This document shows, one piece after another, positions 3,109-40,995 of a stretch of 64,000 nt of DNA. The notes under the pieces are model-generated. The model saw nothing but the letters and a program-made list of their open reading frames with translations. It was not told where the DNA came from and made no database searches. The DNA is from Eoetvoesiella sp. (GTDB taxonomy: Bacteria > Pseudomonadota > Gammaproteobacteria > Burkholderiales > Burkholderiaceae_B): NCBI RefSeq assembly GCF_035555955.1, contig NZ_DATMGA010000028.1, positions 106,402 through 170,401 of the forward strand, written 5' to 3'. The position numbers and the translations under genes were made by a program. Numbering within the stretch: position 1 is the first letter of the stretch; every line of letters begins with the position of its first letter.

Positions 3109-3122
3109 CCTGAAAATATCAT

Positions 3123-3144
3123 GATATAGCCATATGGCTATATC
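3123..3144. promoter_or_regulatory. Perfect 22-bp palindrome GATATAGCCATATGGCTATATC, candidate LysR (T-N11-A type) operator
   Basis: Read directly in the AT-rich divergent intergenic region between the LysR gene and the GMC oxidoreductase gene. It contains TATAGCCATATGGCTATA dyad symmetry. Confidence 0.55.
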
Positions 3145-3270
3145 TTAGTGACTTATTTTCGATTGGACGTATATCTTTAGTCAACATAAAGTGTGCTTGA
3201 CGCAGGAGTATCGGCAAGATCGGCTGAGTTTGTCGGCTTTCCGCGCCGCCACGAAATCACAAGGTTTTGG

Positions 3271-4923: not shown

Positions 4924-4965
4924 AGGAAAGACGGAATTTCAAATAGAGGACAGGAGATAAACAGC

Positions 4966-7065: not shown

Positions 7066-7086
7066 TTCAATTATCAAGGAGACATC

Positions 7087-9060
7087 ATGCCGTTAATCAA
7101 TATAGCGGGGTCCGAGCGATTCGCCTACCAGCTGAAACCCTCCGCGCAAACCAGGGAATTGGCGCGTGGGCTCACGCTGCATTCAGTCAGCGACGACGAT
7201 GTGGCGGGGGTAGATCCGCTGACGTACGAGGTGATTCGACACCGGCTGGCGTCCATCGCCGGGGAAATGGGCGATGCGCTCAAGCGCATGTCCGGCTCGG
7301 TCGTGGTCACGGATTGCAACGATTTTGGAGCCACTATTCTGGACGAATGCGGCGACTCGGTGATTGTTGGGCTTTACAACACCCAGCTGGCCGCATCGGT
7401 CGATATGGCGGTCAAGTGGACGCTGGAGAACCGGGGAGTGAATCCGGGCATCCGGCCCGGCGATATGTTTTTCTGCAACGATCCATGGATAGGCGGCGGC
7501 CTGCATCAGAACGACGCCACGATCATGGCGCCGCTTTTTCACGAAGGCGAGCTATTCGGCTGGACGGCGGCAGTTTGCCACCAAGTGGATCTGGGTGGCG
7601 TGTCTCCCGGGAGCTGGTCGGTCGAGGGCCGGGATGTATTTTGGGAATCGACGCCCGTTCCGCCCGTAAAGATCGTGGAAGAGGGGGAAATCCGTAGTGA
7701 TATCGAAGATATGTATTTGCGGCGCTCGAGAGTGCCGCGCCTGATCGCGCTCGATCTGCGCGCGAAGATCGGCGCCAACAATATTGCGCAGGAACGCTTG
7801 ACGCAGTTGATTGCCAAGTACAGCGCCAAGACCGTCAAAGCGGTGATGAAGCGCATGATGAACGATGCCGAGAGCCGTCTCAGGGCGAAGTTGCTGGAGC
7901 TTCCCGATGGCGAGTGGTCGGGCGTGGCGCATCAGGATTCGTTCCGCAGCGGAGACCGCAACGTATACAAGATCACCCTGAAGATGACGAAAAAGGGAGA
8001 CCGCCTGACGTTCGACTTCACCGGCACCGACAAAGAGGTCGAGGGATTCGCCAATTGCACTCTCGCCGGGTTGAGGGGAGGGATCATGCCGATAGTGCTG
8101 ACCATGCTTTGCGGCGACATTCCGTGGGCTCCGGGCGGGCTTTACCGGTGTTTCGACATCATCAGCGAGCCCGGCACCATCAATAATTGCAATTTTCCCG
8201 CGGGCATTGGCAAGGCTTCTGTAGCATCGGCCTGGGCCACGCAGAATGTCGTTTCCGAAACGGTCGGAACCATGCTGTCCATTCATCCCGAGCATCGCAA
8301 GTCGCTGATGTGCGTGTGCTGCGGAACCTGGGACTTGGCATTGCTGGCCGGCCTCGATCAAAGGGGCAACCCGTTCGTGACGATGATTTGCGACTCGATG
8401 GCGGGCGGCATGGGTGCGCGGGTGGATCAGGACGGCGTCGATACGGGCGGGCTCAATTGTATTCCGATGGGCCGGGTCGCCGACGTTGAAATCAACGAGT
8501 TCAGTTTCCCGATGCTTTATCTTTGGCGCAGGGAGGAAATGGACTCAGGCGGAGCGGGCCGGTTCAGGGGCGGCGCGGGTGGATCCAGTTGCTTCATTCC
8601 GTACGACTCTCCCATAGGCGGCGTGCATCTGGTCGTTTCGGCGACGGGCAAGGCCTTGCCGCAGGCAACCGGGCTGAGCGGGGGCTATCCCGCGGGCACG
8701 CAATACGATGTGCTGTTGCGAGACACGAATGCCAGGCAGATGCTGGCGGCTGGCCGGATCCCGGGCGCTCTGGACGATTTGCAGGGAACTGCCGAGGTGT
8801 TGCAGCAGCATCTGGAAACCCATCTGAACGATGGCGATGTGTACTTCACCCATTGGCAAGGCGGCGGTGGCTATGGCGATCCGCTATTGCGAAACCCGAT
8901 TCTGGTTGCGCGCGACGTCGTTAGGCAGAAAGTGTCCAGGCGCGCCGCCATCGAAGTCTATGGCGTTGCCTTGGCTGAGAACGGAACCGTGGATGTTCCC
9001 GCAACGGAAGCGGCCAGGAAAGCATTGCGTGAAAAGCGCGCCGCTGAAGCGTTTCATTGA
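7087..9060 (+). CDS. Hydantoinase B/oxoprolinase family protein (HyuB / acetone carboxylase alpha-like)
   Basis: 657 aa with DPLTYEVIRHRL, the typical HyuB N-terminus. SD AAGGAG is present, and the gene starts 21 nt after the HyuA-like gene. Confidence 0.88.
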   Translation: MPLINIAGSERFAYQLKPSAQTRELARGLTLHSVSDDDVAGVDPLTYEVIRHRLASIAGEMGDALKRMSGSVVVTDCNDFGATILDECGDSVIVGLYNTQLAASVDMAVKWTLENRGVNPGIRPGDMFFCNDPWIGGGLHQNDATIMAPLFHEGELFGWTAAVCHQVDLGGVSPGSWSVEGRDVFWESTPVPPVKIVEEGEIRSDIEDMYLRRSRVPRLIALDLRAKIGANNIAQERLTQLIAKYSAKTVKAVMKRMMNDAESRLRAKLLELPDGEWSGVAHQDSFRSGDRNVYKITLKMTKKGDRLTFDFTGTDKEVEGFANCTLAGLRGGIMPIVLTMLCGDIPWAPGGLYRCFDIISEPGTINNCNFPAGIGKASVASAWATQNVVSETVGTMLSIHPEHRKSLMCVCCGTWDLALLAGLDQRGNPFVTMICDSMAGGMGARVDQDGVDTGGLNCIPMGRVADVEINEFSFPMLYLWRREEMDSGGAGRFRGGAGGSSCFIPYDSPIGGVHLVVSATGKALPQATGLSGGYPAGTQYDVLLRDTNARQMLAAGRIPGALDDLQGTAEVLQQHLETHLNDGDVYFTHWQGGGGYGDPLLRNPILVARDVVRQKVSRRAAIEVYGVALAENGTVDVPATEAARKALREKRAAEAFH

Positions 9061-9073
9061 CCAGGAGATAATC

Positions 9074-9361
9074 GTGAATTTCGACGACAACATCAAGCTG
9101 GCCGACGATGGTGTGTCCACCGTTTGCAGCCATTGTTCGGAAACGCTTGGCGATGCGCATGGCGACCCATTGGCGCATGCGCTCAGGCTGGAGCGGAAAT
9201 CCTCTGAACTAGGGCCCGGGATCCGGGCCGACCCTGGCTTGTTCACCGATAGGGAAATCGTTCTCAGGCAGCGATTCTGCCCAAAGTGCCTGGCGGTGCT
9301 TGCCACCGAAGTGGTTCCCCAGGACGAGGGCAAGTTGCGCAGCTGGAAGGTCTTTGGCTGA
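9074..9361 (+). CDS. Small Zn-ribbon protein, acetone carboxylase gamma subunit-like
   Basis: GTG at 9074 is preceded by AGGAGA and lies 13 nt after the HyuB stop. The 95-aa product has CSHC and CPKC pairs about 50 residues apart. The longer tracked ORF (8831) overlaps HyuB and is rejected. Confidence 0.65.
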   Translation: MNFDDNIKLADDGVSTVCSHCSETLGDAHGDPLAHALRLERKSSELGPGIRADPGLFTDREIVLRQRFCPKCLAVLATEVVPQDEGKLRSWKVFG

Positions 9362-9371
9362 AGGGCGCTGG

Positions 9372-10085
9372 CTAGGGATTATGCAACCGCCGCTCCAGCA
9401 GCGCCAGGTCTTCGCGCAGCTGGCGCAGGGATTCGTCCACGCTGTTCTCGCGCGAGCGGCGTTCTTCGCCGCGTACCACCGATTGCAGGGCGAAAGTGGC
9501 GAGCATTTGCGCCACGTCTTCCAGCGGCACCTTGCCGCTGGCGCTGAACCACCACGCCGACCAGTTGCACATGCCCAGAATGGCGAAGGCCGCGATTTTC
9601 GGGTCGACGATGCGGAACTGTCCGGCCTGCATGCCGGCTTCGATTACCGCCTGGAAGCGGCTTAGCACCAGCCGGCGCGATGCCTCGGCCTCTTTGCGCA
9701 GGGCGGGAGAGAGGTTTTCTTCGTTGCGCTCGACGACCCGGAACTGCAGCGGATGCCCCAGTATGAGCCGGGCATGCTTCAGCACCAGCTGGCGCAGTGC
9801 CTCCATGGGGTCTGAATTGCTGTCGTCGACCTGGGCCGCCTGCTTGCCGGCCATGCCGGTTATTTCCGTCGTCAGCTCGCGCAGTATGGCTTCTTTATTG
9901 CGGAAGTAATAGTAGATGGCGGTGCGCGTAACGCCCATGGCCTCGGCGATATCGCCCATGCTGGTGCCCTGGAATCCGCGCTGTATGAACAAGGTGGAGG
10001 CGGCTTCCAGTATGGACTCCTGCAGCAGCTCGCGGCGCGAGGACTTGGGGGCGGGTGCGGATTTCTTGGGCGAAGTCTTGGGCAC
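9372..10085 (-). CDS. TetR/AcrR family transcriptional regulator
   Basis: N-terminal HTH TSMGDIAEAMGVTRTAIYYYFRNKEAIL. It is divergent from the 10333 operon. Confidence 0.9.
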   Translation of the reverse strand: MPKTSPKKSAPAPKSSRRELLQESILEAASTLFIQRGFQGTSMGDIAEAMGVTRTAIYYYFRNKEAILRELTTEITGMAGKQAAQVDDSNSDPMEALRQLVLKHARLILGHPLQFRVVERNEENLSPALRKEAEASRRLVLSRFQAVIEAGMQAGQFRIVDPKIAAFAILGMCNWSAWWFSASGKVPLEDVAQMLATFALQSVVRGEERRSRENSVDESLRQLREDLALLERRLHNP

Positions 10086-10216
10086 GATTGTTGTTCAGCT
10101 TTCTTGTCGGTTGCGAAGGGGAGCGGTGCGTGGGGGCTGCGCGGCAACCGCGGTTTTCCGGCCAATGATAAGGCAAGCCGGCGGTGGGCGCAGGCCCGAC
10201 TGCACTATGCGCCATT

Positions 10217-10234
10217 TTTGACATGAGCGTCAAA
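10217..10234. promoter_or_regulatory. Inverted repeat TTTGACATGAGCGTCAAA, candidate TetR operator
   Basis: Lies in the TetR/hydrolase divergent intergenic region. A related TGTCAAAAATGTC is present downstream. Confidence 0.4.
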
Positions 10235-10261
10235 TCCCCGCGTCTCGGTGTAAACACCTAG

Positions 10262-10277
10262 TTGTCTTTATCGACAA
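10262..10277. promoter_or_regulatory. Inverted repeat TTGTCTTTATCGACAA, second candidate operator
   Basis: Lies in the same intergenic region, just upstream of TAGAAT/TATAAAA -10-like elements and a strong SD (AAGGAGG). Confidence 0.35.
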
Positions 10278-10332
10278 TAATTTCACACTTGTGTCAAAAA
10301 TGTCTTAGAATATAAAAAAGGAGGCAGAAATC

Positions 10333-11619
10333 ATGAGTGAATCGCCGACCAGCAAAGACGCCGCCACCGGTGCGGCAAAGCCGCAGGAAGCCACGGCCGG
10401 GTTCCTGAACACCGACTGGAATCCGCGCGGGCTGCCGGAAGGCGCCGCCACCAGCAATGTGGTGCTGCGCACGCAAGACGGTGCGGCCACGGGTGGTGCG
10501 CTGTACCGTCCGGCCACCGCCACCGATACGGTGGTGTGCATCATGCATCCCCGGGAATTCATGGCGTGCCATTACCTGGTGCCGGACATCGTGGAAGCGG
10601 GCTATGCGGCCTGGTCGCAGTGGCCGCGCTCGGTCGGCAACGACCTTCGCCTGGAACACGAGTTCGCGCTTTACGACGTGGCGGCCGGCATGGAGTTCCT
10701 GCGCAAGGCCGGCTTCAAGCGCATTGTCCTGCTGGGAAATTCGGGGGGCAGCGGGCTGTACAGCCTGTATGCGCAGCAGGCCTCGCTGGCGCCCGCCGAC
10801 CGCATCAAGAAGACTCCGGGCGGGCGGGCCACCAAGCTGGACCAACTGGCCATGGTTGAGCCCGACGGCATGGTTTTCCTGGCGCCGCATCCCGGCCAGG
10901 GCGCGCTGCTTATGCAATGCATCGATCCTTCGGTCATCGACGAGTCTGACCCGCTTTCCGTGGATGCCTCGCTGGACCCCTTCGACGAGGCCAATGGCTT
11001 TGGCGACGCCAAAACCGGGGCGCGCTACGGCGCCGAGTTTGTGCGGCGCTATCGCCAGGGGCAGCACGAGCGCGTGCAGCGCCTGGACGCCATGGCGCAT
11101 GCCCTGATCGAACGGCGCATGCAGGCGCGCGGCCGCGCCAAAGAGGGCGGATCGGCCGCCGACCGCCGGCTTGGCGCCCATACCCCCATCATGCAGGTAT
11201 GGCGCACCAACGCCGATCTGCGCTGCTACGACCTGTCGCTGGACCCTTCGGACCGCAAGTACGGCACCTTGTGGGGCGGCGACCCGTTCGCTTCCAACTA
11301 CGGTTCGGTGGGTTTTGCCCGGCTGTGCTCGCCGGAAAGCTGGCTATCGACCTGGTCGGGAATCTCTTCCAACGCCTTGCTGGCCAAGTCGGCGCCAGCC
11401 ATCCGCCAGCCTACGCTGCTGGTGGAATACACCGGCGACCAGGCCTGCTTCCCGTCCATCATTCGCGACATATTCTCGGCCATCGGTGCTTCCGAAAAGC
11501 GGCACGAACGCGTAAGGGGCGATCACCACGGCCGCGCCCTGGCCGCGGGCGAAGAGCCGGGGCGCTACGTGGCGGGCCGTATCGTGCAGGAATGGCTGCG
11601 GCAGCATTTTCCCGGGTAG
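10333..11619 (+). CDS. Alpha/beta-fold hydrolase with a large lid insertion
   Basis: Nucleophile elbow GNSGGSG and candidate Asp (YTGDQ) and His (GDHHG) near the C-terminus. The family was recognised only at fold level. Confidence 0.6.
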   Translation: MSESPTSKDAATGAAKPQEATAGFLNTDWNPRGLPEGAATSNVVLRTQDGAATGGALYRPATATDTVVCIMHPREFMACHYLVPDIVEAGYAAWSQWPRSVGNDLRLEHEFALYDVAAGMEFLRKAGFKRIVLLGNSGGSGLYSLYAQQASLAPADRIKKTPGGRATKLDQLAMVEPDGMVFLAPHPGQGALLMQCIDPSVIDESDPLSVDASLDPFDEANGFGDAKTGARYGAEFVRRYRQGQHERVQRLDAMAHALIERRMQARGRAKEGGSAADRRLGAHTPIMQVWRTNADLRCYDLSLDPSDRKYGTLWGGDPFASNYGSVGFARLCSPESWLSTWSGISSNALLAKSAPAIRQPTLLVEYTGDQACFPSIIRDIFSAIGASEKRHERVRGDHHGRALAAGEEPGRYVAGRIVQEWLRQHFPG

Positions 11620-11678
11620 CCGATCCGGGCGCCCGGCGTGCCCGGGCTTTCCATTTCCATGTTTTCAAGGAACGAATC

Positions 11679-12548
11679 ATGTCATCTGCTTCGACGAGCA
11701 GCCTGGTGTTGAAAGGGGTGGACCACACGGCCCGCCCCACCTGGAGGCTGCGCGAAACCATTACGTTTTATCGCGACGTGCTTGGCCTGCCGCTGATCCA
11801 CACGATTTCCGCGCGAGGCTGGGGGCCGGCCACGCACCCAGACTTTTTGCATTTCTTTTTCGACAGCGGCAAGGGCAGCACCATTGCGTTTTTCTACTAC
11901 CTGGGCTCGTCGGAACCCGCAGGCTTGGGCCGCGAGAAGCACGCCAAGCCCTGGCCGGAGGATCATGTCTTCGACGCCACCCATACCGCCTGGCAGGTGG
12001 ATACCGAAGAAGAGCTCAAGGCCTGGAAGACGCGCCTGGAGGAAAAGGGGTTGGAGGTTTCCGTCGAAACCCGCCACGAAATCATCGAATCCATTTATTT
12101 TCGCGATCCCAACGGCTATTTCGTGGAGATCACGCGCAAGCTGCGTCCGCTGCAGGAGCGCGATTCGACCGACGCGGAGCTGACGCTGCAGGCGGCCATG
12201 GAGCTGGAGGACGAGGCCGCCCGCGGGGTGCAGGACATTGGCGCCATCGACGACGTCTGGAACCGCAAGTCCAGGCTGCTTTTGTCCGACGCAAGCCCGG
12301 GTGCCGCGCGGGTGCTGGTTTTGAAAGTGCCCGAGTTCGCCGCGTTGATCGAGGCGGCCCGGCGGTCGCCGCAATGCAAGGTGGACGACAGCCTGGAGGA
12401 CTATGCGGTGATCGAGTCGCAGTCGCCCATGGAATTCAGCCGCAAAGAGCTGGGCGTGAAGCCCGCCGTCTGGTATGGGCTGTTCACGGGCGGCCTGCAG
12501 GGACGCATCACGGTGTTCGACCGCGACCGCGTTCGCATAGAGCCTTAG
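11679..12548 (+). CDS. VOC (glyoxalase/bleomycin resistance/extradiol dioxygenase) family protein with an uncharacterised C-terminal domain
   Basis: ATG 11679. The N-terminal ~150 aa have VOC features (GVDHTA, THTAW, YFVEI as putative H/H/E ligands). The last ~130 aa are unassigned. The tracked 11199 start runs through the hydrolase gene in another frame. Confidence 0.65.
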   Translation: MSSASTSSLVLKGVDHTARPTWRLRETITFYRDVLGLPLIHTISARGWGPATHPDFLHFFFDSGKGSTIAFFYYLGSSEPAGLGREKHAKPWPEDHVFDATHTAWQVDTEEELKAWKTRLEEKGLEVSVETRHEIIESIYFRDPNGYFVEITRKLRPLQERDSTDAELTLQAAMELEDEAARGVQDIGAIDDVWNRKSRLLLSDASPGAARVLVLKVPEFAALIEAARRSPQCKVDDSLEDYAVIESQSPMEFSRKELGVKPAVWYGLFTGGLQGRITVFDRDRVRIEP

Positions 12549-12581
12549 GCGAGACGACGCGGCGGCGTAAAGGAGAGACAA

Positions 12582-14267
12582 GTGAAAGACATACTGAACC
12601 CCCTGGAAGGGGTTGTGTACCAGACCGAGGAAAAGGCGCGGGCCTATCTGGGCAGCGGAGCCTGGGTCGACGACACGGTGGGTGGGGCCTTGCGCAAGAG
12701 CGCCACGCGCCACCCGGACCGGCCGGCCTACATTACCGACGAGGGCACGCTTACCTATCGGCAATTGAACGAACAAAGCGATTGCCTGGCGGCGGCGCTG
12801 CTGGACCTTGGTTTGAAGCCGGGCGACCGTGCCATCTTCCAGATGGGCAGCACGCTGCAAACCGCCTTGGCCGTGCTGGCCTGCTACAAGGCGGGCGTGG
12901 TGCCGGTGTGCGCGGTGCCGCAGTACCGCGAAATGGAAATCGGCAAGCTCATGCAGATGTCGCAGGCCACGGCGTATTTCGTGCAGGCCGACTTCAGCAG
13001 CTTCGACCTGGTGGAGTTTGCGCAGAAGATGATGGACAAGAACGAGCATGTTCGTCACCTGGTGGTGGCGCGCGGCACGCCGTCGATGCCGGGCCATGGC
13101 TTGCAGGCCCTGATTGCACGGCATACGCCGGAAAGCGGGCGGGAGCGGCTGAAAGACGTGCCCGTTGGACCGCGCGACGTGCTGGCCTTCCAGCTTTCGG
13201 GCGGCTCCACCGGCCTGCCGAAAATCATCCCGCGTTTCCATGGCGAATACCTGGGCCATAGCGCCGGCTGGTCCAGGCGGTATGCCATCGATGAATCGTC
13301 CCGCGTCATCTGGTCGCTGCCGTTGATGCACAATGCCGGGCAGATCTACGCCATGATGCCCATGGTGCTGCTGGGCGTTACCACGGTGCTGATGCCCAAG
13401 GTGGATATCCAGCGCATGCTGGAGCTGATTCAAGAGCATCGCGTTACGCACGGCCTGTCGATAGGCCCCATAGCCCCGCAGCTGATTGCGTTCCAAGGCA
13501 TCCGCAAGTATGACCTGTCGTCGCTGAAGCTGTTCGCCACCATGAGCCGGTCCGACACCCTGGAGGAGCATCTGGGCGTGCCCTGCTCCAATCTGTACGG
13601 CATTACGGAAGGCCTGTTGCTGGGCTCGCAGGCCGGCGAGCCGGCGTTCGTGCGGCACCATACCCAGGGAACCAGCGGCTGCCCGGACGACGAGATCACC
13701 ATACGCGAGCCGGGCACGGACCGCATTCTTCCTGCCGGTTCGACGGGCGAGATGTGCTTCCGGGGGCCTTCCAGTCTGCTGGGCTATTACGGCGACCCCG
13801 CGGCCACGCGCGAGGCGCTGACCGACGACGGCTTCGTGCGCAGTGGCGACCTGGTCACCGAGCACTGCCTGGAAGGCCGTTCCTGGTACGCCTTCGAGGG
13901 CCGGTTGCGCGACAACATCAATCGCGGCGGAGAAAAAATCGGCTGCGAGGAAGTGGAGGGCTGCATCAGCCATCACCCCGCCATCGCCGACACCAAGCTG
14001 GTGGCCATGCCCGACCCTGTGTATGGCGAGCGCGCATGCGCCTACATCATCGTGCGGCCGGGGCATACGGCGCCCACCATTCCCGAGATGATCGCCTTCC
14101 TGACGGAAATGGGCCTGGCCAAGTTCAAGTGCCCCGAGCGCATCGAGGTGGTGGATGAGTTTCCCACGACCCGGGTGGGCAAGGTGGACAAGGTGGCCCT
14201 GCGCAAGATGGTGGCCGAGCGGCTGGCCGAAGAAGGCGAGCAGGCCGGGCAAGGGGTCAAGCGATGA
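12582..14267 (+). CDS. Aryl-acid adenylating enzyme / aryl-CoA ligase (EntE/DhbE/salicylate-AMP ligase-like ANL family)
   Basis: GTG start after AAAGGAGAG. The motif FQLSGGSTGLPKIIPRFH is typical of EntE/DhbE-type aryl-AMP ligases. C-terminal GEKIGCEEVE and GKVDK are present. Confidence 0.8.
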   Translation: MKDILNPLEGVVYQTEEKARAYLGSGAWVDDTVGGALRKSATRHPDRPAYITDEGTLTYRQLNEQSDCLAAALLDLGLKPGDRAIFQMGSTLQTALAVLACYKAGVVPVCAVPQYREMEIGKLMQMSQATAYFVQADFSSFDLVEFAQKMMDKNEHVRHLVVARGTPSMPGHGLQALIARHTPESGRERLKDVPVGPRDVLAFQLSGGSTGLPKIIPRFHGEYLGHSAGWSRRYAIDESSRVIWSLPLMHNAGQIYAMMPMVLLGVTTVLMPKVDIQRMLELIQEHRVTHGLSIGPIAPQLIAFQGIRKYDLSSLKLFATMSRSDTLEEHLGVPCSNLYGITEGLLLGSQAGEPAFVRHHTQGTSGCPDDEITIREPGTDRILPAGSTGEMCFRGPSSLLGYYGDPAATREALTDDGFVRSGDLVTEHCLEGRSWYAFEGRLRDNINRGGEKIGCEEVEGCISHHPAIADTKLVAMPDPVYGERACAYIIVRPGHTAPTIPEMIAFLTEMGLAKFKCPERIEVVDEFPTTRVGKVDKVALRKMVAERLAEEGEQAGQGVKR

Positions 14268-14746
14268 TGGTCAGCACGGAGCATGTAATCGGCACGCAGC
14301 CCTTCACCATACGCCGGACCGTCAAGTGGGGCGATTGCGACCCCGCTGGCGTGGTCTACACCGTGGTGTTCGGCGAGTACGTGATCTCGGCGGCCGAGCT
14401 GTTCTATCGGCATCTGTTCGGCGAAGGGCCGCAGCATGCCAAGGACAGGCACGGCTTTGGAACGCCGACGCGGGGCCTGACCTTCGACTTCCAGCGTTCG
14501 CTGCGCCCGGACGAGCAGTTCGACGTAGAGGTCACGGTGGGCGAGATCCGCTCGCGCACCTACACCCTGGTCATGCATGGGCGCACTTTGGCCGGCGAAA
14601 CGGTATTCGTCGCGCGGCTTACACCAATTTGCGTGGCGCGCGGAGAGCGCCGCGCCATTGATATGCCGCTCGTCCTGCGCGAGGCGCTGCAGGCATACCA
14701 GGCCGGTCAGGCGCTGGACCAAGAGCATCACACGAAGCAAAGCTAG
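14264..14746 (+). CDS. Hotdog-fold acyl-CoA thioesterase (4HBT/YbgC type)
   Basis: The N-terminus VKWGDCDPAGVVY carries the 4HBT catalytic Asp context. It is about 160 aa. Its start overlaps the ligase stop (ATGA), implying translational coupling. Confidence 0.75.
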   Translation: MMVSTEHVIGTQPFTIRRTVKWGDCDPAGVVYTVVFGEYVISAAELFYRHLFGEGPQHAKDRHGFGTPTRGLTFDFQRSLRPDEQFDVEVTVGEIRSRTYTLVMHGRTLAGETVFVARLTPICVARGERRAIDMPLVLREALQAYQAGQALDQEHHTKQS

Positions 14747-14803
14747 AAAGCATCATCCATAAACATTATCAAAAAGCATTACTCAAAAAACAGGAGACTA
14801 ATC

Positions 14804-15979
14804 ATGTCGATGAAATTGAAAATCGCATTGGGGCTGGCGTCCTTGCTGTGCGCCGCCCAGGCCGGCGCGGTGCAACCCGTCAAGCTGGGGTTCATTGCCG
14901 CGCAAAGCGGTCCGCTGGGCGTACTGGGGGCCGAGCAGAAGCGCGGCCTGGATCTGGCGCTGGAAGCGTTGGGCGGCAAGCTGGGCGGCCACCCTGTGGA
15001 ATTGTTCAGCGCCGATTCGCGCGGGGTGCCCGGCACGGCCGTGCAGGAGGCGTCCAAGCTGATAGAGAAGGATGAGGTGGACGTCATTACCGGCGCTACG
15101 GCGTCGAACGAGATCCTGGCCATGGTCAAGCCCATTTCCAGGGCCGGACTGACCCTGGTGGGGTCGAACGGCGGGCCGTCGCCGCTGGCCGGCAAAGAAT
15201 GCAATCCGGGCTATTACAGCGTGGCTTTCCAGAACGACCAATGGAGCGAGGGCATGGGCACCTATATGTCGGCCCACGGCGTCAAGCGCGCCTACTTCAT
15301 CGGCATGGACTACCAGGCGGGCTGGGACCACGTGGGCGGCGCGCAGCGCAGCTTCAAGGGTGAAACCGTTGCCAAGGTCTTCACGCCTCAGGCGCAGCTG
15401 GACTTCTCGGCCGAACTGGCGCAAATACGGGCCGCGAAGCCGGACGGCGTGTTCGCGTTCTACCCGGGCGGCGCGGCCATTGCGTTCGTGAAGCAGTACG
15501 CCCAGGCCGGGCTTTCCAAGACGATTCCGCTTTACTCGAATGCCGGCCTAGTCGATACGCTGTTCCTTCCCTCTTTCGGCGACAACGCAGTGGGCGTGGT
15601 GATCTCCAGCCACTACAGCGCCGACCTGGACAATGCGGCGAACAAGAAGTTCGTGGCCGCCTTCCGGGCTAAATACAAGCGCGATCCCTCCAGCTATGCC
15701 GCCTCGCAATACGATGCCGTAATGCTTATCGACCATGCTTTGCGCGACATCGGCGGCGACAAGATCGACAAGGCCAAGCTGCGCGCAGCCCTCGAGACCA
15801 CGAAATTCGACAGCGTGCGCGGGGCGTTCAAGTTCAACGTGAACCACATGCCCATCCAGAACATCTATGTGCAGCGCGTCGAGCGCGACAAGAACGGTGA
15901 GCTGGCCCTGCGCCTGCTGGGCGTGGCTCAGGAAAACGCCGCCGACCGCTATGCGCAGGACTGCGCCATGAAGAAGTAG
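14804..15979 (+). CDS. ABC transporter substrate-binding protein (LivJ/K-like, cluster B)
   Basis: Signal peptide MSMKLKIALGLASLLCAAQAGA followed by VKLGFIAAQSGP, typical of Leu/Ile/Val-binding family SBPs. Confidence 0.85.
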   Translation: MSMKLKIALGLASLLCAAQAGAVQPVKLGFIAAQSGPLGVLGAEQKRGLDLALEALGGKLGGHPVELFSADSRGVPGTAVQEASKLIEKDEVDVITGATASNEILAMVKPISRAGLTLVGSNGGPSPLAGKECNPGYYSVAFQNDQWSEGMGTYMSAHGVKRAYFIGMDYQAGWDHVGGAQRSFKGETVAKVFTPQAQLDFSAELAQIRAAKPDGVFAFYPGGAAIAFVKQYAQAGLSKTIPLYSNAGLVDTLFLPSFGDNAVGVVISSHYSADLDNAANKKFVAAFRAKYKRDPSSYAASQYDAVMLIDHALRDIGGDKIDKAKLRAALETTKFDSVRGAFKFNVNHMPIQNIYVQRVERDKNGELALRLLGVAQENAADRYAQDCAMKK

Positions 15980-15995
15980 CAGCAGGTTCAAGCTC

Positions 15996-16895
15996 ATGAC
16001 ACTGTCGAACTTATTCGAGCAGGTCTTCAACGGCCTGCAATACGGGATGCTGCTTTTCCTGATGGCCATGGGCGTGACCCTGATCTTCGGGGTCATGCGG
16101 CTGGTCAACCTTGCCCATGGTTCCATGTTCATGGTGGGCGGCTACCTGGCCAGCTCGGGACTGCAGGCTTCGGGATCCGTGTGGGTGGCCATAGCGTGCG
16201 CGCTGGTGGGTTCGGCGGTGCTGGGCGCCGTGCTTGAAATCCTGGTGATACGGCCGCTGTACCAGCGCGGCCACCTGGATCAACTGCTGGCCACGTTCGG
16301 CGTCACGCTTACGCTCAACGAACTGGTGGTGGTCATATGGGGGCGCGAACCTGTATTCATGCCGGTTCCCGCCTTGCTGACCGGCCAGGTATCGCTGCTG
16401 GGCGTGCCTTATCCGGTTTATCGGCTGGTCATTACCGGGGTGGCCGTGCTTACGGGGCTGATCCTGATGTGGCTGGTTTCGCGCACGCGCTTCGGCATGC
16501 TGGTGCGGGCCGGCGCCGACAACCGCACGATGGTTGCCGGGCTGGGGGTGAACGTGGTGCTGCTGTATACGCTGGTGTTCAGCCTGGCCGCGGTGCTGGC
16601 GGGTCTGGCGGGAATGATGTCGGGGCCGCTTATTTCCATGCAGCCGGCCGTCGGCGATCCCATTCTCATTCTCACCTTGTCGGTGGTCTGCATTGGCGGC
16701 TTCGGTTCGGTGCGCGGCGCGCTGGTGGCCTCGCTGCTGATCGGCCTGCTCGACACCTTCGGGCGGATATTCGCGCCGCAATGGTTCGGCGCAATGGGCA
16801 ATACCCTGGCCAATATGCTGGTGTACATCATCATGGCGCTGGTGCTGTTCTTCAAGCCCGCCGGCCTGTTCACGCTGACGGGGAAAAAAGCATGA
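15996..16895 (+). CDS. Branched-chain amino acid-type ABC transporter permease (LivH-like)
   Basis: 299 aa and polytopic hydrophobic. LVNLAHGSMFMVGGY is a LivH family motif. Confidence 0.85.
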   Translation: MTLSNLFEQVFNGLQYGMLLFLMAMGVTLIFGVMRLVNLAHGSMFMVGGYLASSGLQASGSVWVAIACALVGSAVLGAVLEILVIRPLYQRGHLDQLLATFGVTLTLNELVVVIWGREPVFMPVPALLTGQVSLLGVPYPVYRLVITGVAVLTGLILMWLVSRTRFGMLVRAGADNRTMVAGLGVNVVLLYTLVFSLAAVLAGLAGMMSGPLISMQPAVGDPILILTLSVVCIGGFGSVRGALVASLLIGLLDTFGRIFAPQWFGAMGNTLANMLVYIIMALVLFFKPAGLFTLTGKKA

Positions 16896-17899
16896 ATCCA
16901 AACACAAACCCCGCTTTTGCATTCCGGCGCGCCTGGATTCTTTGGGCCTTGCTGGCGCTGCTGCTGGTGCTGCCTTTGCTGGGCGAACCCTATTATGTGA
17001 AGCTGGCGACGCGCATGGTCATTTTCGGGCTGGCGGCGCTTAGCCTGGATCTACTGGTGGGCTATGCCGGGCTGATCAGCTTCGGGCATGCGGCCTTCAT
17101 GGGCGTGGGTGCCTATACCGTGGGAATACTGGCCAGCCATGGCCTGGCCAGCGCCTGGGTTGTCTGGCCGCTGGCCATGCTGGCCGGGGCCGTGCTGGCC
17201 TTGTGCATCGGCGCGGTCTCGTTGCGATGCAATGGGCTGTACTTCATTTTCATTACGCTGGCGTTTTCGCAGATGGTGTATTACGGGGCGCAAAGCCTGC
17301 GGCAGTATGGCGGGGACGACGGCTTTTCGCTGGATGCTTCCAGCACAATCCTGCCCGGCGTGGATGCTTCGGACCATACGGTGCTGTTCTATGCGTCGGT
17401 GGTATTGCTGTTGGTCGTTTTGTATGCTTGCCGGCGGCTGGTCATGTCGCCGTTCGGGCGGGTGGCCGTGGCGGTGCGCGACAATGAATTGCGCCTGCAG
17501 GCCGTGGGGGTAAGGCCGTATCCGTACAAGCTGGCGATGTTCGTGGTTTCGGGCGCCATCGGGGCCTTGGCGGGCGCGCTCATGGCCAATCTTACGGGCT
17601 TCATTTCGCCGGGCTATGTGTCGTGGCTGGTATCGGGCGAGCTGCTGGTCATGGTCATCCTGGGCTCGGTCGGCACGCTGGTGGGGCCGATACTGGGCGC
17701 CGCGCTGTTCGTCGCTTTCGAATATGTTCTGTCGGACTGGACCGAGCACTGGATGCTGGTGTTCGGCCCCTTGCTGGTGTTGCGGGTGCTGTTGCTCAAG
17801 GACGGCATATACGGTTTGCTTTTGCGCCGCCCGGCGGTTTCCGCGCCGGCAAGCGGCAGCGGGCGCGCCGAGCCTGCCGGGACGGGAGGGCAGGCATGA
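16892..17899 (+). CDS. Branched-chain amino acid-type ABC transporter permease (LivM-like)
   Basis: ATG 16892 overlaps the LivH stop. GYAGLISFGHAAFMGVGAY is a LivM family motif. The tracked 16337 start is in-frame read-through of the LivH region. Confidence 0.85.
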   Translation: MNPNTNPAFAFRRAWILWALLALLLVLPLLGEPYYVKLATRMVIFGLAALSLDLLVGYAGLISFGHAAFMGVGAYTVGILASHGLASAWVVWPLAMLAGAVLALCIGAVSLRCNGLYFIFITLAFSQMVYYGAQSLRQYGGDDGFSLDASSTILPGVDASDHTVLFYASVVLLLVVLYACRRLVMSPFGRVAVAVRDNELRLQAVGVRPYPYKLAMFVVSGAIGALAGALMANLTGFISPGYVSWLVSGELLVMVILGSVGTLVGPILGAALFVAFEYVLSDWTEHWMLVFGPLLVLRVLLLKDGIYGLLLRRPAVSAPASGSGRAEPAGTGGQA

Positions 17900-18651
17900 A
17901 TACGCCCTTGCTTGAAATTCGCGGCCTCAAGAAGAAATACGGCTCGTTGACCGTTACCGACAACGTGTCGCTTACCGTGAACGCCAACGAGCTGCATGCG
18001 CTTATCGGCCCCAACGGGGCGGGAAAGACCACCTTGGTCAGCCAGATATCGGGTCAGCTGATGCCCGATTCCGGTTCCATCCTGCTGGAAAGCGAAGACA
18101 TTGCCAGGCTGCCCACACCGCAGCGAACGCGGCGTGGCGTGGGCCGCTCGTTCCAGATAACCAGTATTTTTTCCAGCCTGACGGCCCAGGAAAATGTGGC
18201 GCTGGCGGTGCGGGCCAGCCTGGGGCAGAGCCGGGGTTTCTGGAAGCCGGCTTCGGCCTACGGCCAGGCGCGTCAACAGGCGCTGGACTTGCTGGAACAG
18301 GTGGGGCTGGGCGACTGCGGCGATGCGCCGTGCAATGAACTGGCCCACGGGCAGCTGCGCCAGCTGGAACTGGCGCTGGCCTTGGCCGCCAGGCCAAGAA
18401 TACTCGTCCTGGACGAGCCCATGGCGGGCCTGGGGCCGGTGGAAGCCCGCCATATGGTAGAGCTGCTTGCCTCGCTGAAGAATGAATGCGCCATTTTGCT
18501 GATCGAGCACGATATGGACGCCGTGTTCGCCCTGGCCGACCGGATTTCCGTTCTGGTGGCCGGCCGCGTGGTGCTTAGCGGTTCGGCGGACGACGTGCGC
18601 AACAGCGACGAAGTGCGCCAAGCGTATCTGGGAGACGACGATGAAGCATGA
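17896..18651 (+). CDS. ABC transporter ATP-binding protein (LivG-like)
   Basis: ATG 17896 overlaps the LivM stop. Walker A GPNGAGKTT and Walker B LVLDEPMAGL are present. Confidence 0.88.
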   Translation: MNTPLLEIRGLKKKYGSLTVTDNVSLTVNANELHALIGPNGAGKTTLVSQISGQLMPDSGSILLESEDIARLPTPQRTRRGVGRSFQITSIFSSLTAQENVALAVRASLGQSRGFWKPASAYGQARQQALDLLEQVGLGDCGDAPCNELAHGQLRQLELALALAARPRILVLDEPMAGLGPVEARHMVELLASLKNECAILLIEHDMDAVFALADRISVLVAGRVVLSGSADDVRNSDEVRQAYLGDDDEA

Positions 18652-19387
18652 CGGAGTATTGCCTGCCCAGGAAGGTTCCGGGGTGCTGCTGGCGCTGGAC
18701 GGCGTATGCAGCGGCTATGGCCTGGGCCAGGTGCTGTTCGAGGTTTCCATGACGATCCGCAAGGGCGAAGTCGTTTCCCTGATGGGGCGCAACGGCATGG
18801 GCAAGACCACGCTCATCCGCACGGTCATGGGCATGCTGGCGCCTCGCGCCGGGAACATTCAATTTGGCGAGCGGCGGCTCAACGGCCTGGCCATGCATCG
18901 CGTCGCCGCGCTTGGGCTGGGCTGGGTGCCCGAGGGGCGGTTCATTTTCCCCAGCCTTTCTGTGGAAGAGAACCTGGTCGCCACGGCATCGCGCCGGGCC
19001 GTATCGGGGCAGCCATGGACGCTGGAGCGCATCTACGAGCTATTTCCGCGGTTGTACGAGCGGCGCAGGAACGGCGGCGCCCAGCTTTCGGGCGGCGAGC
19101 AGCAAATGCTGACCATAGGCAGGGCGCTGATGACGAATCCCAGCCTGCTGATCCTGGACGAGGCGACGGAAGGCTTGTCGCCCAAGATACGCCAGGAAAT
19201 CTGGCGGACACTGGGCGTCGTCAAAAGCACCGGCCAGTCGATACTGGTGGTCGACAAGGACGTTCGCGCCCTGGCGAAGCTGGCCGACCGCCATTACATG
19301 ATTGAAAAAGGGCGCATTGCGTGGGAAGGCGATTCGGCGGCGTTGTTCGCCGACGCCGGCCTGGCGCAGCGCTATGTGGGTTTATGA
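18641..19387 (+). CDS. ABC transporter ATP-binding protein (LivF-like)
   Basis: Walker A GRNGMGKTT, signature LSGGEQQ and Walker B LILDEATEGL. It overlaps the LivG end by 11 nt. Confidence 0.88.
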   Translation: MKHDGVLPAQEGSGVLLALDGVCSGYGLGQVLFEVSMTIRKGEVVSLMGRNGMGKTTLIRTVMGMLAPRAGNIQFGERRLNGLAMHRVAALGLGWVPEGRFIFPSLSVEENLVATASRRAVSGQPWTLERIYELFPRLYERRRNGGAQLSGGEQQMLTIGRALMTNPSLLILDEATEGLSPKIRQEIWRTLGVVKSTGQSILVVDKDVRALAKLADRHYMIEKGRIAWEGDSAALFADAGLAQRYVGL

Positions 19388-19409
19388 ATTTATTGGAAAA
19401 GGTGTGCTC

Positions 19410-20540
19410 ATGAAGATCGATGTCGTTGGCGGCGGTCCGGCCGGAATGTATTTTTCAATGCTGATGAAAAAGCACGATCCTGGTCATCGCATCCGCATAT
19501 TCGAACAGAACCCCATGGACGCGACATACGGATGGGGCGTGGTTTTCTCGGACGTGGCGTTGAGCTTCCTGGAAAAGGCGGATCCCGTCTTCTACAAGAA
19601 GTTCATTGCGGGGCACGAGCGCTGCGACTATATGGAAATCGTGCACAAGGGCGTGCATGTCCAGTTGAAGAACAATCATTTTTCACGCGCTTCCCGCATC
19701 AATCTGCTGAAGACACTGCGTGAGGAATGCCTGGCGCAGGGTGTGGAGTTCGAATTCGGAACCCGCATCGACAATGCCGGCAAGCTGGACGGCGCGGACG
19801 TCATTGTGGCGGCGGACGGCGGCAACAGCGCCATTCGCACCCAGTTCGCCCAGCACTTCCAGCCCACCATCGAGACGCGGCGCAACAAGTTCGCCTGGTA
19901 TGGCACGCGCCAGCTCTTTCATCCCGTGTCGCTTATTTTCCGGGAAACCGAGCATGGCGTGTTCATGGCCCACTCCTACCAGTACAGCAAGGAGCTAAGC
20001 ACCTTCCTGGTCGAGGTGGACCCCGAAACATGGCGCCGCGCCGGCCTGGACACCATGACGGACGAGGAAAGCCGCCGCTATTGCGAAAGCGTGTTTGCGC
20101 CCGAGCTGGGCAGCAATGGCCTGTTGTCGAACCGTTCCATCTGGTTCAACGCGAACGTGGTCAGCAATGCCAAATGGAGTCACGGCAACATCGTGCTGCT
20201 GGGCGACGCCCTGCGCAGCGTGCATTTCTCGCTGGGCTCGGGCACACGCATGGCCATGCAGGATGCGATTGCGTTGCAGGAAGCCTTTACCCGCAACGGC
20301 AGCAACGTGCAGGCGGCTTTCGCCGATTTCGAAGGCCAGCGCCGCGACTCCTCGTCCAATTTCCAGGAGGCCGCCGCCAAGAGCCTGGACTGGTACGAGA
20401 ACATCGGCGAGAAGATGGGGCTGGACCCCGTTTCGTTCGCCTACGACTACATGCGCCGCACCGGCCGCGTCAGCCACGACGACCTGCGCGAACGCGACCC
20501 CGATTTCGTGGCCAGCTACGAGGCGATTGCGGCGGCGTAG
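19410..20540 (+). CDS. FAD-dependent monooxygenase resembling the N-terminal half of salicylyl-CoA 5-hydroxylase / 2-aminobenzoyl-CoA monooxygenase-reductase
   Basis: ATG 19410. MKIDVVGGGPAGMYFSMLMKK...YGWGVVFSD matches the N-terminal pattern I recall for that family. GDALRSVHFSLGSG is the FAD ribityl-binding motif. There is no OYE-like reductase domain. Confidence 0.7.
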   Translation: MKIDVVGGGPAGMYFSMLMKKHDPGHRIRIFEQNPMDATYGWGVVFSDVALSFLEKADPVFYKKFIAGHERCDYMEIVHKGVHVQLKNNHFSRASRINLLKTLREECLAQGVEFEFGTRIDNAGKLDGADVIVAADGGNSAIRTQFAQHFQPTIETRRNKFAWYGTRQLFHPVSLIFRETEHGVFMAHSYQYSKELSTFLVEVDPETWRRAGLDTMTDEESRRYCESVFAPELGSNGLLSNRSIWFNANVVSNAKWSHGNIVLLGDALRSVHFSLGSGTRMAMQDAIALQEAFTRNGSNVQAAFADFEGQRRDSSSNFQEAAAKSLDWYENIGEKMGLDPVSFAYDYMRRTGRVSHDDLRERDPDFVASYEAIAAA

Positions 20541-20563: not shown

Positions 20564-21196
20564 CTAGTTCTTGGGGTTTTCCCACAGCACGTCGGATCCG
20601 CCCGCGTTTTTGTTTAGTACGCGGGCCAGCACGAAGCATAGGTCCGAGAGGCGGTTCAGGTATTGGCGGGGCGGTTCGTTGACCGGTTCGCTGCGATGCA
20701 GCGTGATGACCGATCTTTCCGCGCGGCGGCAGACGGTGCGGGCCAGGTGGGCCAGCGATGCCGCCTGCGTGCCGCCGGGCAGTATGAATTCCTTGAGCGG
20801 GGTCAGCGTGGCGTTGTGTTCGGCCAGGGCGGTATCCAGAAAGGCCACGTGTTCGGCTGTCAAAGCCGTGTGATCCGGAATGCACAGCTCCGCGCCGAGG
20901 TCGAACAGGTGATGCTGGATGCGGGACAGGAGAGCATCGACCTGGCTTCGAGCATGAATTCGATTTTCACCCGTGATATGGCCAAGGCCGGGACGCGGGC
21001 GTGCATCCTGCGTTGGCTCGTCGGCGCCGTCGTGTTGTATTTGCGCGCGCAGCATGCCTATGACGGTGTTCAGTTCGTCCACGTCGCCCATGGCGGCGAT
21101 GCGCGGCGCGTCCTTGTCGACGCGGCTGCCGTCGCCAAGGCCGGTGGTGCCCTGGTCGCCGGTGCGGGTTGCAATGACTGACAAGCGTGTGGCCAT
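20564..21196 (-). CDS. PduO-type ATP:cob(I)alamin adenosyltransferase
   Basis: TRTGDQGTTGL...MGDVDELN is the PduO/MMAB N-terminal signature. It converges on the monooxygenase gene. Confidence 0.85.
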   Translation of the reverse strand: MATRLSVIATRTGDQGTTGLGDGSRVDKDAPRIAAMGDVDELNTVIGMLRAQIQHDGADEPTQDARPRPGLGHITGENRIHARSQVDALLSRIQHHLFDLGAELCIPDHTALTAEHVAFLDTALAEHNATLTPLKEFILPGGTQAASLAHLARTVCRRAERSVITLHRSEPVNEPPRQYLNRLSDLCFVLARVLNKNAGGSDVLWENPKN

Positions 21197-21915: not shown

Positions 21916-21956
21916 CTTGCGCTTTGGCGTGTGGTCAATGGCCGGACACCCTATTC

Positions 21957-23453: not shown

Positions 23454-23488
23454 TCAATGTATGCATCAATGAAAAACGAGGAAGAGAC

Positions 23489-25969: not shown

Positions 25970-26054
25970 TGCAGGCTCCGGACGCCCTGCTGCGGGCAGT
26001 ATGCTGTTTGGCTGGTTTGCGTGTTCAGGCAGGCCAACAGGGCACGAGTATTCT

Positions 26055-26987: not shown

Positions 26988-27032
26988 AGATGCCTATTAT
27001 CCACAAAATGGCTAACAATTATAGATCAATAG

Positions 27033-27048
27033 CATTATTCAGATAATG
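27033..27048. promoter_or_regulatory. Inverted repeat CATTATTCAGATAATG, candidate LysR-type site
   Basis: Dyad in the AT-rich divergent region between the LysR gene (26987) and the dehydrogenase gene (27132). Confidence 0.35.
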
Positions 27049-27131
27049 GGACGCTGTCTACACTTGTTGCAATGTTCGAGGGCTTGAGTACCGGGCCACG
27101 GGAAAACACACAGAAAGGCACAGTGAGTAGC

Positions 27132-28133: not shown

Positions 28134-28194
28134 CGAATACAGATCGAGAGCCGCCGGAAAGCAAGAAGCGGCACACAACAAAGAGAGACAGCTC

Positions 28195-31990: not shown

Positions 31991-32062
31991 AGCGGTGAAC
32001 AGGGCCGAAAGCCCGGAAGTTCCTTGGTAGATGGGTTGTTGAATAAAAATCAGGAGACATAT

Positions 32063-40874: not shown

Positions 40875-40995
40875 GAGCCTAGGGCCTGTTTAGTGTTCGG
40901 GCCCTAGTTCAGTAGGCTTATGGCGCGAACGGCGTTCGTCCTGTAAATTTGCAACGCTTGTGTGTGGTTCTTATAAATTTGTGGTGTACATAGCC

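Follow-up and report, generated by a model that had tools for sequence, protein, structure and literature searches.

Here we describe a gene cluster in a 64,000-nucleotide stretch of the genome of Eoetvoesiella sp., a member of the Alcaligenaceae (contig NZ_DATMGA010000028.1, hereafter the window). Between positions 9372 and 20540 a gene for a TetR-family repressor stands on the reverse strand opposite ten genes on the forward strand. These ten encode a predicted hydrolase of 428 amino acids that we refer to as U428, a VOC protein, an adenylating ligase, a hotdog thioesterase, the five components of a Liv-type ABC importer and a stand-alone FAD monooxygenase (Table 1). All the genes that a preliminary description of this DNA had listed were found where it had placed them. 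The start of the monooxygenase gene was corrected, its open reading frame (19302-20540) beginning at the ATG at 19410.

Organization of the locus

The co-directional run with several overlapping stop/start junctions that had been described earlier was confirmed by measurement. Four junctions overlap, those of ligase and thioesterase, LivH and LivM, and LivM and LivG by 4 bp each and that of LivG and LivF by 11 bp. The remaining intergenic gaps within the ten-gene run measure 16-59 bp, so that there is no space for an overlooked carrier protein gene. Domain scans of the cluster and of the neighboring genes (approximately 250-43900) revealed no carrier protein (PP-binding), non-ribosomal peptide synthetase (NRPS), cupin or OYE domain, as the preliminary description had stated for the cluster, and no isochorismate enzyme. 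The count of candidate terminators inside the operon was not above the expectation from shuffled sequence.

Table 1. Genes and candidate regulatory elements of the cluster, with positions in the window
Feature	Position	Strand	Basis or remark
TetR-family repressor, divergent from the operon	9372-10085	-	Pfam TetR_N (E 7e-19) and TetR_C_24 (E 1e-29)
Candidate TetR operator 1, TTGACATGAGCGTCAA	10218-10233		TTGAC-N6-GTCAA palindrome
Candidate TetR operator 2, TTGTCTTTATCGACAA	10262-10277		
Candidate TetR operator 3, TTCACACTTGTGTCAA	10282-10297		Overlaps the -35 hexamer
Sigma-70-like promoter for the operon (candidate)	10282-10311	+	TTCACA, 18 nt spacer, TAGAAT; 10 of 12 consensus matches
U428, 428-aa serine alpha/beta hydrolase (predicted), unnamed family	10333-11619	+	AlphaFold fold; no Pfam or NCBIfam match
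VOC protein, 289 aa	11679-12548	+	Pfam Glyoxalase domain, residues 14-151
Aryl-acid adenylating enzyme / CoA ligase (predicted), 561 aa	12582-14267	+	AMP-binding and AMP-binding_C
Hotdog thioesterase, 160 aa, Pseudomonas 4-hydroxybenzoyl-CoA thioesterase type	14264-14746	+	Pfam 4HBT_2
ABC importer periplasmic substrate-binding protein	14804-15979	+	Peripla_BP_6
ABC permease, LivH/UrtB-like	15996-16895	+	BPD_transp_2
ABC permease, LivM/UrtC-like	16892-17899	+	BPD_transp_2; start placed at MNPNTNP
ABC ATPase, LivG-like	17896-18651	+	ABC_tran and BCA_ABC_TP_C
ABC ATPase, LivF-like	18641-19387	+	Walker A (GRNGMGKT) and LSGGEQQ signature in the translation
Stand-alone FAD monooxygenase, 376 aa	19410-20540	+	FAD_binding_3

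Conservation across genomes

Using the ligase alone as query and keeping one genome per species, we recovered a sample of 80 loci, in which the presence of genes was scored by tblastn with every protein of the window. U428, the VOC protein, the ligase and the monooxygenase are co-located in 78 of them; taken singly, U428 and the monooxygenase each occur in 79 and the VOC protein in 78. This co-conservation of the core genes, packed as one operon, is far above chance and bears out the earlier supposition that they belong together. A TetR orthologue adjoins the cluster in 70 loci and a thioesterase gene is present in 65. The four-gene core spans at least 25 genera in three classes (Beta-, Alpha- and Gammaproteobacteria), including Bordetella, Achromobacter, Pigmentiphaga, Pandoraea, Burkholderia, Paraburkholderia, Caballeronia, Cupriavidus, Variovorax, Azospirillum, Sphingomonas and Pseudomonas, and its proteins are typically 57-73 % identical to those of the window. 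The closest related locus, in a metagenome-assembled genome of E. caeni, has a ligase that is 96 % identical. The chromosome of Neopusillimonas maritima carries two copies of the whole cluster, each with the ABC importer: L004 (1.556-1.578 Mb), which is without the thioesterase and has the binding-protein gene directly after the ligase, and L007 (1.772-1.794 Mb).

The operon is thus genuine, widely conserved in bacteria and uncharacterised. Full-text literature searches gave no characterisation of the gene set, in keeping with the preliminary description, which had not recognised the combination as a described pathway. The sole earlier mention concerns genes BCAL1153-1162 of Burkholderia cenocepacia J2315, referred to as a "putative hydroxybenzoate catabolism cluster" on the genomic island BcenGI5 (PMC2559838). 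In cystic fibrosis sputum BCAL1153, 1156 and 1157 were up and BCAL1161-1162 down (PMC2559838), and BCAL1155 and BCAL1159 are both listed among the genes that are higher in vitro than in rat lung (PMC3417382). This copy adjoins insertion sequence and transposase genes (PMC2559838), and together with its location on a genomic island such neighbors suggest horizontal spread of the cluster.

Activation and hydroxylation of an aromatic acid

The ligase, which contains the stretch FQLSGGSTGLPKIIPRFH quoted in the preliminary description, groups with aryl-acid adenylating enzymes and not with fatty-acyl ligases; the latter grouping would have spoken against the route then envisaged. Its top 13 matches in the PDB are all salicylate- or 2,3-dihydroxybenzoate (DHB)-AMP ligases (286-176 bits, E ~1e-83 for the best), including the salicylate-AMP ligase 5wm2, PchD, DhbE and EntE, while the next-best relative, a fatty-acyl/feruloyl-CoA synthetase, scores 132 bits. 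Among the NCBIfam models the DHB-AMP ligase is the best (TIGR02275, 334 bits, cut-off 723.55), compared to 266 bits for a medium-chain ligase, and no equivalog cut-off is reached. The enzyme nevertheless falls outside the EntE/DhbE type in the strict sense: besides scoring below the equivalog cut-off, it has no carrier protein or NRPS partner, and the specificity residues HN[YF]...[SC] are absent.

The differences lie in the substrate pocket, in which residue numbering follows what we take to be that of DhbE. The ligase reads HNAGQ-IY as against HNF..C, YGITEGL as against FGMAEGL and TQGTSGC as against TQGRPLS; the alignment is ambiguous around position 240, and no substrate prediction was drawn from the specificity code. 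As the pocket differs and yet is conserved in the family, the family appears to have its own conserved substrate. An HxxG element like that of ordinary acyl-CoA synthetases would fit a true CoA ligase.

Over its whole length the monooxygenase aligns with model positions 1-383 of 768, the N-terminal half, of the NCBIfam salicylyl-CoA 5-hydroxylase/oxidoreductase model PRK08255 (391 bits, E 8e-117); as it has no OYE half, it stays below the whole-protein cut-off of 1078 bits. VioD scores 243 bits (PDB 3c4a, E 6e-54), and all free-substrate hydroxylases remain below 70 bits. The window protein has FAD_binding_3 only, with no OYE reductase domain as found in the ACMR-type fusion, and its orthologues measure 374-398 amino acids. 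The gene contexts of relatives at 41-44 % identity are informative. Swit_5101 (41-44 % identical) is a stand-alone gene adjoining a gentisate 1,2-dioxygenase gene on plasmid pSWIT02. A 41 % identical relative forms the N-terminal domain of a 913-aa protein with a C-terminal benzoate-CoA ligase, encoded on the Rhizobium beringeri plasmid pRlX1 (L083:7986-10727), and a 718-aa archaeal enzyme of Haladaptatus (41-44 % identical) is encoded beside a benzoate-CoA ligase and beta-oxidation-type genes. That relatives are fused to or stand beside benzoate-CoA ligases supports a thioester substrate, so that the grouping with thioester hydroxylases made in the preliminary description holds. We propose that the enzyme is an aryl-CoA para-hydroxylase and, since the OYE reductase half is missing, its product should stay aromatic. 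Homologues are named 'anthraniloyl-CoA monooxygenase' by JGI. The 913-aa fusion also occurs on many other Rhizobium plasmids, where it is annotated merely as a 'benzoate-CoA ligase family protein'.

The thioesterase is related to the 4-hydroxybenzoyl-CoA thioesterase of Pseudomonas CBS3 (PDB 1bvq, E 2e-5) and conserves the GDCDPAG motif, which bears the catalytic Asp. Being absent in 15 of the 80 loci, it is dispensable. Gentisyl-CoA, according to what is reported for Streptomyces WA46, is said to hydrolyse spontaneously, and such hydrolysis would fit this absence.

Ring cleavage and hydrolysis

The VOC protein consists of one VOC domain (approximately residues 14-154) followed by a conserved C-terminal region of about 135 amino acids (155-289), for which a domain-library search gave no family match. 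An alignment of 24 orthologues shows H16, H58, D62, H102, H133, Y140 and E150 to be invariant. These residues include the 2-His-1-carboxylate triad H16/H102/E150 as well as His133 and Tyr140, and residues 131-150, TRHEIIESIYFRDPNGYFVE, match the extradiol ring-cleavage signature, presumably PROSITE PS00082. The architecture is not that of the two-domain (four-module) type I extradiol enzymes with a C-terminal catalytic domain but resembles the one-domain protein 9U42, which is the top PDB match both by sequence (E 6e-16) and, by E-value, in a structure search with a model of the VOC protein (predicted local distance difference test, pLDDT, 85); the two are 28 % identical in the Foldseek structural alignment. 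According to Seo et al. (2025, as cited in PMC13572102), 9U42 is a 182-aa glyoxalase-like protein from Acinetobacter that acts as a homogentisate 1,2-dioxygenase. Its substrate is a para-diol, which it opens beside the side-chain carbon, and by analogy this is the chemistry that gentisate would require. We propose for the VOC protein the role of an Fe(II) dioxygenase that cleaves the ring of a para-diol.

U428 has no Pfam or NCBIfam match and no PDB match even by profile search, the hit to Abhydrolase_1 (E 0.07) not being significant. Its AlphaFold (AF2) model (pLDDT 75) has an alpha/beta hydrolase fold with a large helical cap, and this fold matches approximately 1,180 PDB chains at E <0.001. 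Chlorogenate, feruloyl and cinnamoyl esterases, monoacylglycerol lipases and a methylesterase head these matches, with thioesterases also among the leaders; meta-cleavage-product hydrolases of the BphD/MhpC type are not among the top 50. Ser137 in the motif GNSGG, D369 and H398/H399 are invariant and form a candidate Ser-Asp-His triad. An exhaustive search yielded approximately 210 clusters (50 % identity) below E 1e-30, and distant full-length members of the family match Abhydrolase_1, Hydrolase_4 and Peptidase_S9. Thus, of the label 'alpha/beta hydrolase' in the preliminary description, the fold stands on structure prediction and distant members, while the protein is not recognisable by a Pfam model. 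From the model, U428 would represent an unnamed family within the alpha/beta hydrolase superfamily. It is approximately 66-72 % identical across classes, among the best-conserved of the core proteins, and we propose that it hydrolyses the product of ring fission.

Uptake modules and a linked maleate isomerase

The preliminary description had assigned the cluster a dedicated ABC importer. The five Liv-type genes are indeed present, but they are no part of the conserved unit, occurring in only 5 of the 80 loci (L001, L002, L004, L005 and L007, from Eoetvoesiella, Pusillimonas and Neopusillimonas). In 28 loci the monooxygenase gene is followed instead by a PcaK-like aromatic-acid/H+ symporter of the MFS type, which scores 415 bits to the PcaK model, in another 28 by a TctC/Bug-type binding protein, and 19 have no linked transporter. 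The ABC importer is therefore a lineage-specific insert, one of three interchangeable uptake modules outside the conserved unit. All three types appear from their sequences to be carboxylate or aromatic-acid transporters. The binding protein of the ABC system, for example, is closest in the PDB to 4evq/4evr (E 2e-59), 4ey3, 4evs and 4f06 (to E 8e-27), which we take to be benzoate-derivative binding proteins of Rhodopseudomonas palustris.

A gene for a maleate cis-trans isomerase (250 aa) lies in the same direction no more than 5 kb downstream in 34 of the 80 loci, and the encoded enzyme matches that of Pseudomonas putida S16 (4FQ7) at E 6e-80. This linkage points to maleate as the end product and hence to direct hydrolysis of the ring-fission product, a maleate-yielding step for which U428 is the sole hydrolase candidate in the cluster.

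Beyond these partners, the flanks of the related loci vary. Directly upstream of the core in Pseudomonas loci L073, L074 and L077 (approximately 500-7400 in L074) are genes for an OprD-like porin, an aldehyde dehydrogenase, two SDRs, an NTF2-like protein and a KstD/ChcC1-like flavoprotein desaturase, the last scoring 218 bits to 4-oxocyclohexanecarboxylate 2-dehydrogenase; this set might feed the pathway by turning an alicyclic acid into an aromatic one. The aldehyde dehydrogenases found close to some loci were considered as a clue to salicylaldehyde and rejected, being of a generic type and not salicylaldehyde-specific. No substrate clue was found beyond the core in Achromobacter, Pigmentiphaga and Pandoraea, where the neighbors are unrelated housekeeping genes.

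Regulation

The divergent intergenic region of 247 bp holds three 16-bp palindromes of the form TTGAC-N6-GTCAA. These were located by eye and with a regular expression, and an inverted-repeat search at default settings gave none in the promoter region. Of 79 regions upstream of the U428 gene, 54 contain the motif; its density there is 3.5 per kb compared to 0.08 per kb across all loci, a 44-fold enrichment, and it is likely the TetR operator. The third copy overlaps the only sigma-70-like site that a consensus scan found on the forward strand of the intergenic region. The total number of such sites is not above shuffle expectation, and the promoter call alone is weak evidence. With a divergent TetR gene and candidate palindromic operators in the shared intergenic region, the locus has the arrangement of a TetR-regulated operon, and this conserved pair of operator and repressor could serve as a biosensor module.

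Proposed pathway and alternatives

From the gene content, domain families, co-conservation, exchange of transporters, isomerase linkage and operator motif reported above, we infer the reactions, the substrate and the order of steps that follow. Our leading interpretation, to which we give not quite an even chance, is that of a self-contained operon, repressed by TetR, for the catabolism of an aromatic carboxylic acid, probably salicylate or a closely similar ortho-substituted compound, which would be converted to a para-diol, cleaved by the VOC protein and split to maleate and pyruvate. The acid would be imported by the Liv-type ABC system here and by a PcaK-like MFS or TctC-type module elsewhere. 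The EntE-like ligase would adenylate it and pass the acyl group to CoA, and the stand-alone monooxygenase would hydroxylate the aryl-CoA para to the existing ortho substituent, giving a para-diol of the gentisyl-CoA type. After release of the dihydroxy acid by the hotdog thioesterase, the one-domain VOC dioxygenase would open the ring next to a hydroxyl to give a maleylpyruvate-type product, and U428 would split this to maleate and pyruvate. Where a maleate isomerase is linked, maleate would proceed to fumarate. The scheme employs each conserved gene once and requires no further gene. The para-diol intermediate and the direct hydrolysis by U428 were chosen chiefly because of the linked maleate isomerase.

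The upper part of this scheme is the CoA-dependent route of import, activation, hydroxylation and release that the preliminary description had suggested, and as a putative route it is supported by the tests of ligase, monooxygenase and co-conservation. The same description had the VOC protein and the hydrolase process the product further in some way; the linkage to maleate isomerase and the likeness of the VOC protein to homogentisate dioxygenase now suggest a concrete role for both. The more specific claim, that the operon encodes a complete uncharacterised route from a salicylate-type acid to maleate and pyruvate in which the VOC protein (as a gentisate-type ring-cleaving enzyme) and U428 (as a maleylpyruvate-type C-C hydrolase), both enzyme types that would be new to this chemistry, replace the classical trio of cupin dioxygenase, isomerase and FAH-family hydrolase, is made somewhat more tentatively.

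Several points weigh against this interpretation. The ligase pocket is unlike that of both salicylate (HNF..C) and DHB (HNY..S) enzymes, a difference conserved in the orthologues inspected, and the true substrate of the ligase may not be salicylate. That an EntE-type enzyme forms a CoA thioester on its own is unproven, and Streptomyces WA46 employs a second enzyme, SdgB. The VOC relative 9U42 acts on homogentisate, not on gentisate. The known maleylpyruvate hydrolases are, to our knowledge, FAH-family enzymes and not alpha/beta hydrolases, and the fold neighbors of U428 are mostly esterases, lipases and thioesterases. Finally, no maleate isomerase was found in the 64-kb window itself.

Some of these points favor the same logic applied to another substrate or intermediate, an alternative that we consider less likely than the salicylate-type route and that is its main rival. 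Candidate substrates, with the respective intermediate in brackets, are 2- or 3-hydroxyphenylacetate (homogentisate, with maleate and acetoacetate as products), 3- or 4-hydroxybenzoate (gentisyl-CoA), anthranilate (5-hydroxyanthranilate) and an N-heteroaromatic acid, for instance 3-hydroxypicolinate (3,6-dihydroxypicolinate). The remodelling of the ligase pocket relative to the salicylate and DHB enzymes (Phe/Tyr236 to Ala) and the homogentisate dioxygenase as nearest characterised VOC relative fit such substrates, as do a monooxygenase family that includes 2-aminobenzoyl-CoA enzymes and whose JGI name refers to anthraniloyl-CoA, an MFS partner resembling the 4-hydroxybenzoate transporter PcaK, and an isomerase like 4FQ7, an enzyme of a pyridine-ring pathway. 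However, the cluster conserves neither a deaminase nor an amidase, one of which the anthranilate and pyridine routes would require, the relatives of the ligase and thioesterase are aryl-acid and not arylacetate enzymes, and the ligase retains Asn235, presumably the residue that binds the ortho-hydroxyl in DhbE.

The fold matches of U428 to aryl esterases, lipases and a methylesterase, and the position of its gene as the first of the operon, would also suit an esterase at the entry of the pathway, which would liberate the aromatic acid from an ester such as methyl salicylate or a depside, with the ring-fission product handled by genes elsewhere. This is improbable given that 79 of 80 loci carry U428 and that its identity is 66-72 % across classes, that no signal peptide is apparent at its N-terminus and that all linked transporters carry carboxylates; moreover, the linked maleate isomerase demands a maleate-yielding hydrolase and the cluster offers no other candidate. 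More improbable still, the VOC protein might be an isomerase or epimerase acting on the CoA ester, with U428 opening by hydrolysis either a hydroxylated ring or a lactone, in the manner of the Trudgill-type furoyl-CoA route, and with the thioesterase as the last enzyme. VOC enzymes do include non-oxygenases, and methylmalonyl-CoA epimerases have the best TM-scores among the structural matches (TMt 0.63-0.65), but the protein carries the full extradiol-type signature with His/His/Glu triad and second-sphere His/Tyr, its best match by E-value is a ring-cleaving dioxygenase, and the maleate product would be left unexplained. A biosynthetic cluster whose hydroxylated aryl acid would go into a siderophore or another secondary metabolite, as the EntE/DhbE-like ligase might suggest, is very improbable, for there is no carrier protein, NRPS or isochorismate enzyme, and the cluster instead comes with transporters for uptake, a dioxygenase of the ring-cleavage type, a maleate isomerase and a TetR repressor.

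If the salicylate-type pathway is true, it assigns a function to three widespread unnamed families (U428, the VOC protein of about 290 amino acids and the stand-alone aryl-CoA hydroxylase) and defines a second kind of lower pathway for aromatic acids of the para-diol type. Among the carriers of the operon are the rhizosphere genera Variovorax, Azospirillum, Paraburkholderia and Pseudomonas as well as Bordetella, Achromobacter and Burkholderia cenocepacia; the route would be widespread in Proteobacteria of soil and rhizosphere and in opportunistic pathogens. Should the substrate be salicylate, the operon bears on the bacterial removal of a plant defence hormone and on the genome-based prediction of aromatic catabolism, which now overlooks it.

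Neighboring genes in the window

Upstream of the cluster lies a unit (2152-9361) of a LysR regulator (2152-3108, reverse strand), a GMC oxidoreductase (3193-4923), hydantoinase/oxoprolinase A (4966-7065) and B (7087-9060) and a 99-aa open reading frame without Pfam match (9062-9361), which resembles an acetone/acetophenone-carboxylase or caprolactamase-type set. Its LysR, GMC oxidoreductase and hydantoinase A-B genes were considered as part of the system and rejected, as they are linked only in the two Eoetvoesiella loci (L001 and L002). Downstream and convergent with the operon is a gene for a PduO-type cob(I)alamin adenosyltransferase (20564-21196, reverse strand), which appears unrelated, as do those for glycolate-oxidase-like Fe-S and FAD subunits (21924-25009), a CobW GTPase (37110-38228) and a ZnuCBA zinc importer (39259-42009). 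A possible second acid-activation locus (25016-33202) comprises an AraC regulator (25016-26251, reverse strand), a 540-aa protein without Pfam match (27039-28661, reverse strand), a second AMP-binding ligase (29076-30740) and a second Peripla_BP_6 binding protein (32024-33202). AT skew is strongly negative (-0.30) at 16001-18000, over the two permease genes of the importer, with similar dips at 34-44 kb and 62-64 kb; the dip at the permease genes likely arises from T-rich codons for hydrophobic residues.

Comparison with known systems

Conversion of salicylate into gentisate by way of CoA thioesters is established for the Sdg system of Streptomyces sp. WA46 and the Ceh system of Rhizobium sp. 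X9 (PMC13594046, PMC11335346, PMC6460240), and that of 4-hydroxybenzoate to gentisate, with an NIH shift, for PhgABC of Brevibacillus laterosporus (PMC7862547). Like SdgABCD and CehGHI, the operon described here would activate an acid, use a homologous FAD monooxygenase domain to hydroxylate the aryl-CoA and set free a dihydroxy acid. Unlike in those systems, the hydroxylase stands alone and lacks the OYE half that the NCBIfam salicylyl-CoA 5-hydroxylase model includes, and the operon is joined by an alpha/beta hydrolase from a new family and, in many loci, by a maleate isomerase. There is a single EntE-type ligase and no SdgB-like partner as in Sdg, and the regulator is a TetR protein whereas that of Ceh is of the IclR type (CehR4). 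Ring cleavage, performed in Sdg and Ceh by a cupin gentisate 1,2-dioxygenase (SdgD or CehL-type), is here assigned to the VOC protein; no such cupin was found in the cluster or the scanned neighboring genes (approximately 250-43900), and none is conserved among the 80 loci. With PhgABC, compared by description only, the operon would share a module of ligase, aryl-CoA hydroxylase and thioesterase yielding gentisate, but its ligase resembles activators of ortho-hydroxy acids and it has ring-cleavage genes of its own in the cluster.

The monooxygenase domain is also homologous to that of ACMR, the 2-aminobenzoyl-CoA monooxygenase/reductase of the anthranilate pathway of Azoarcus evansii, which acts on an ortho-substituted benzoyl-CoA. 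ACMR-type clusters, exemplified by the Haladaptatus locus, differ from the operon in their fused OYE reductase and beta-oxidation-like genes, and since neither is found here, a dearomatising reduction as in ACMR would not be expected.

In the lower half, the VOC protein shares with 9U42 the one-domain fold, the extradiol signature and the positions at which the His/His/Glu and His/Tyr residues are conserved. It differs by the additional conserved C-terminal region of about 135 amino acids and by its CoA-pathway gene neighbors, those of 9U42 being HPD, MaiA and FahA. The proposed end products, maleate and pyruvate, are those of the branch of the gentisate pathway in which HbzF of P. alcaligenes hydrolyses maleylpyruvate directly, followed by isomerisation to fumarate as by NicE and Iso of the nicotinate and nicotine pathways, and the linked isomerase of the related loci is highly similar to Iso of P. 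putida S16. HbzF is an FAH-family enzyme, whereas U428 is a predicted alpha/beta serine hydrolase of a new family. No described counterpart of this lower half was found in the literature searched. Thus, the cluster lies outside the Sdg, Ceh and Phg modules as these are defined; by analogy its upper half would work like theirs, while the module for ring cleavage and hydrolysis is apparently novel.

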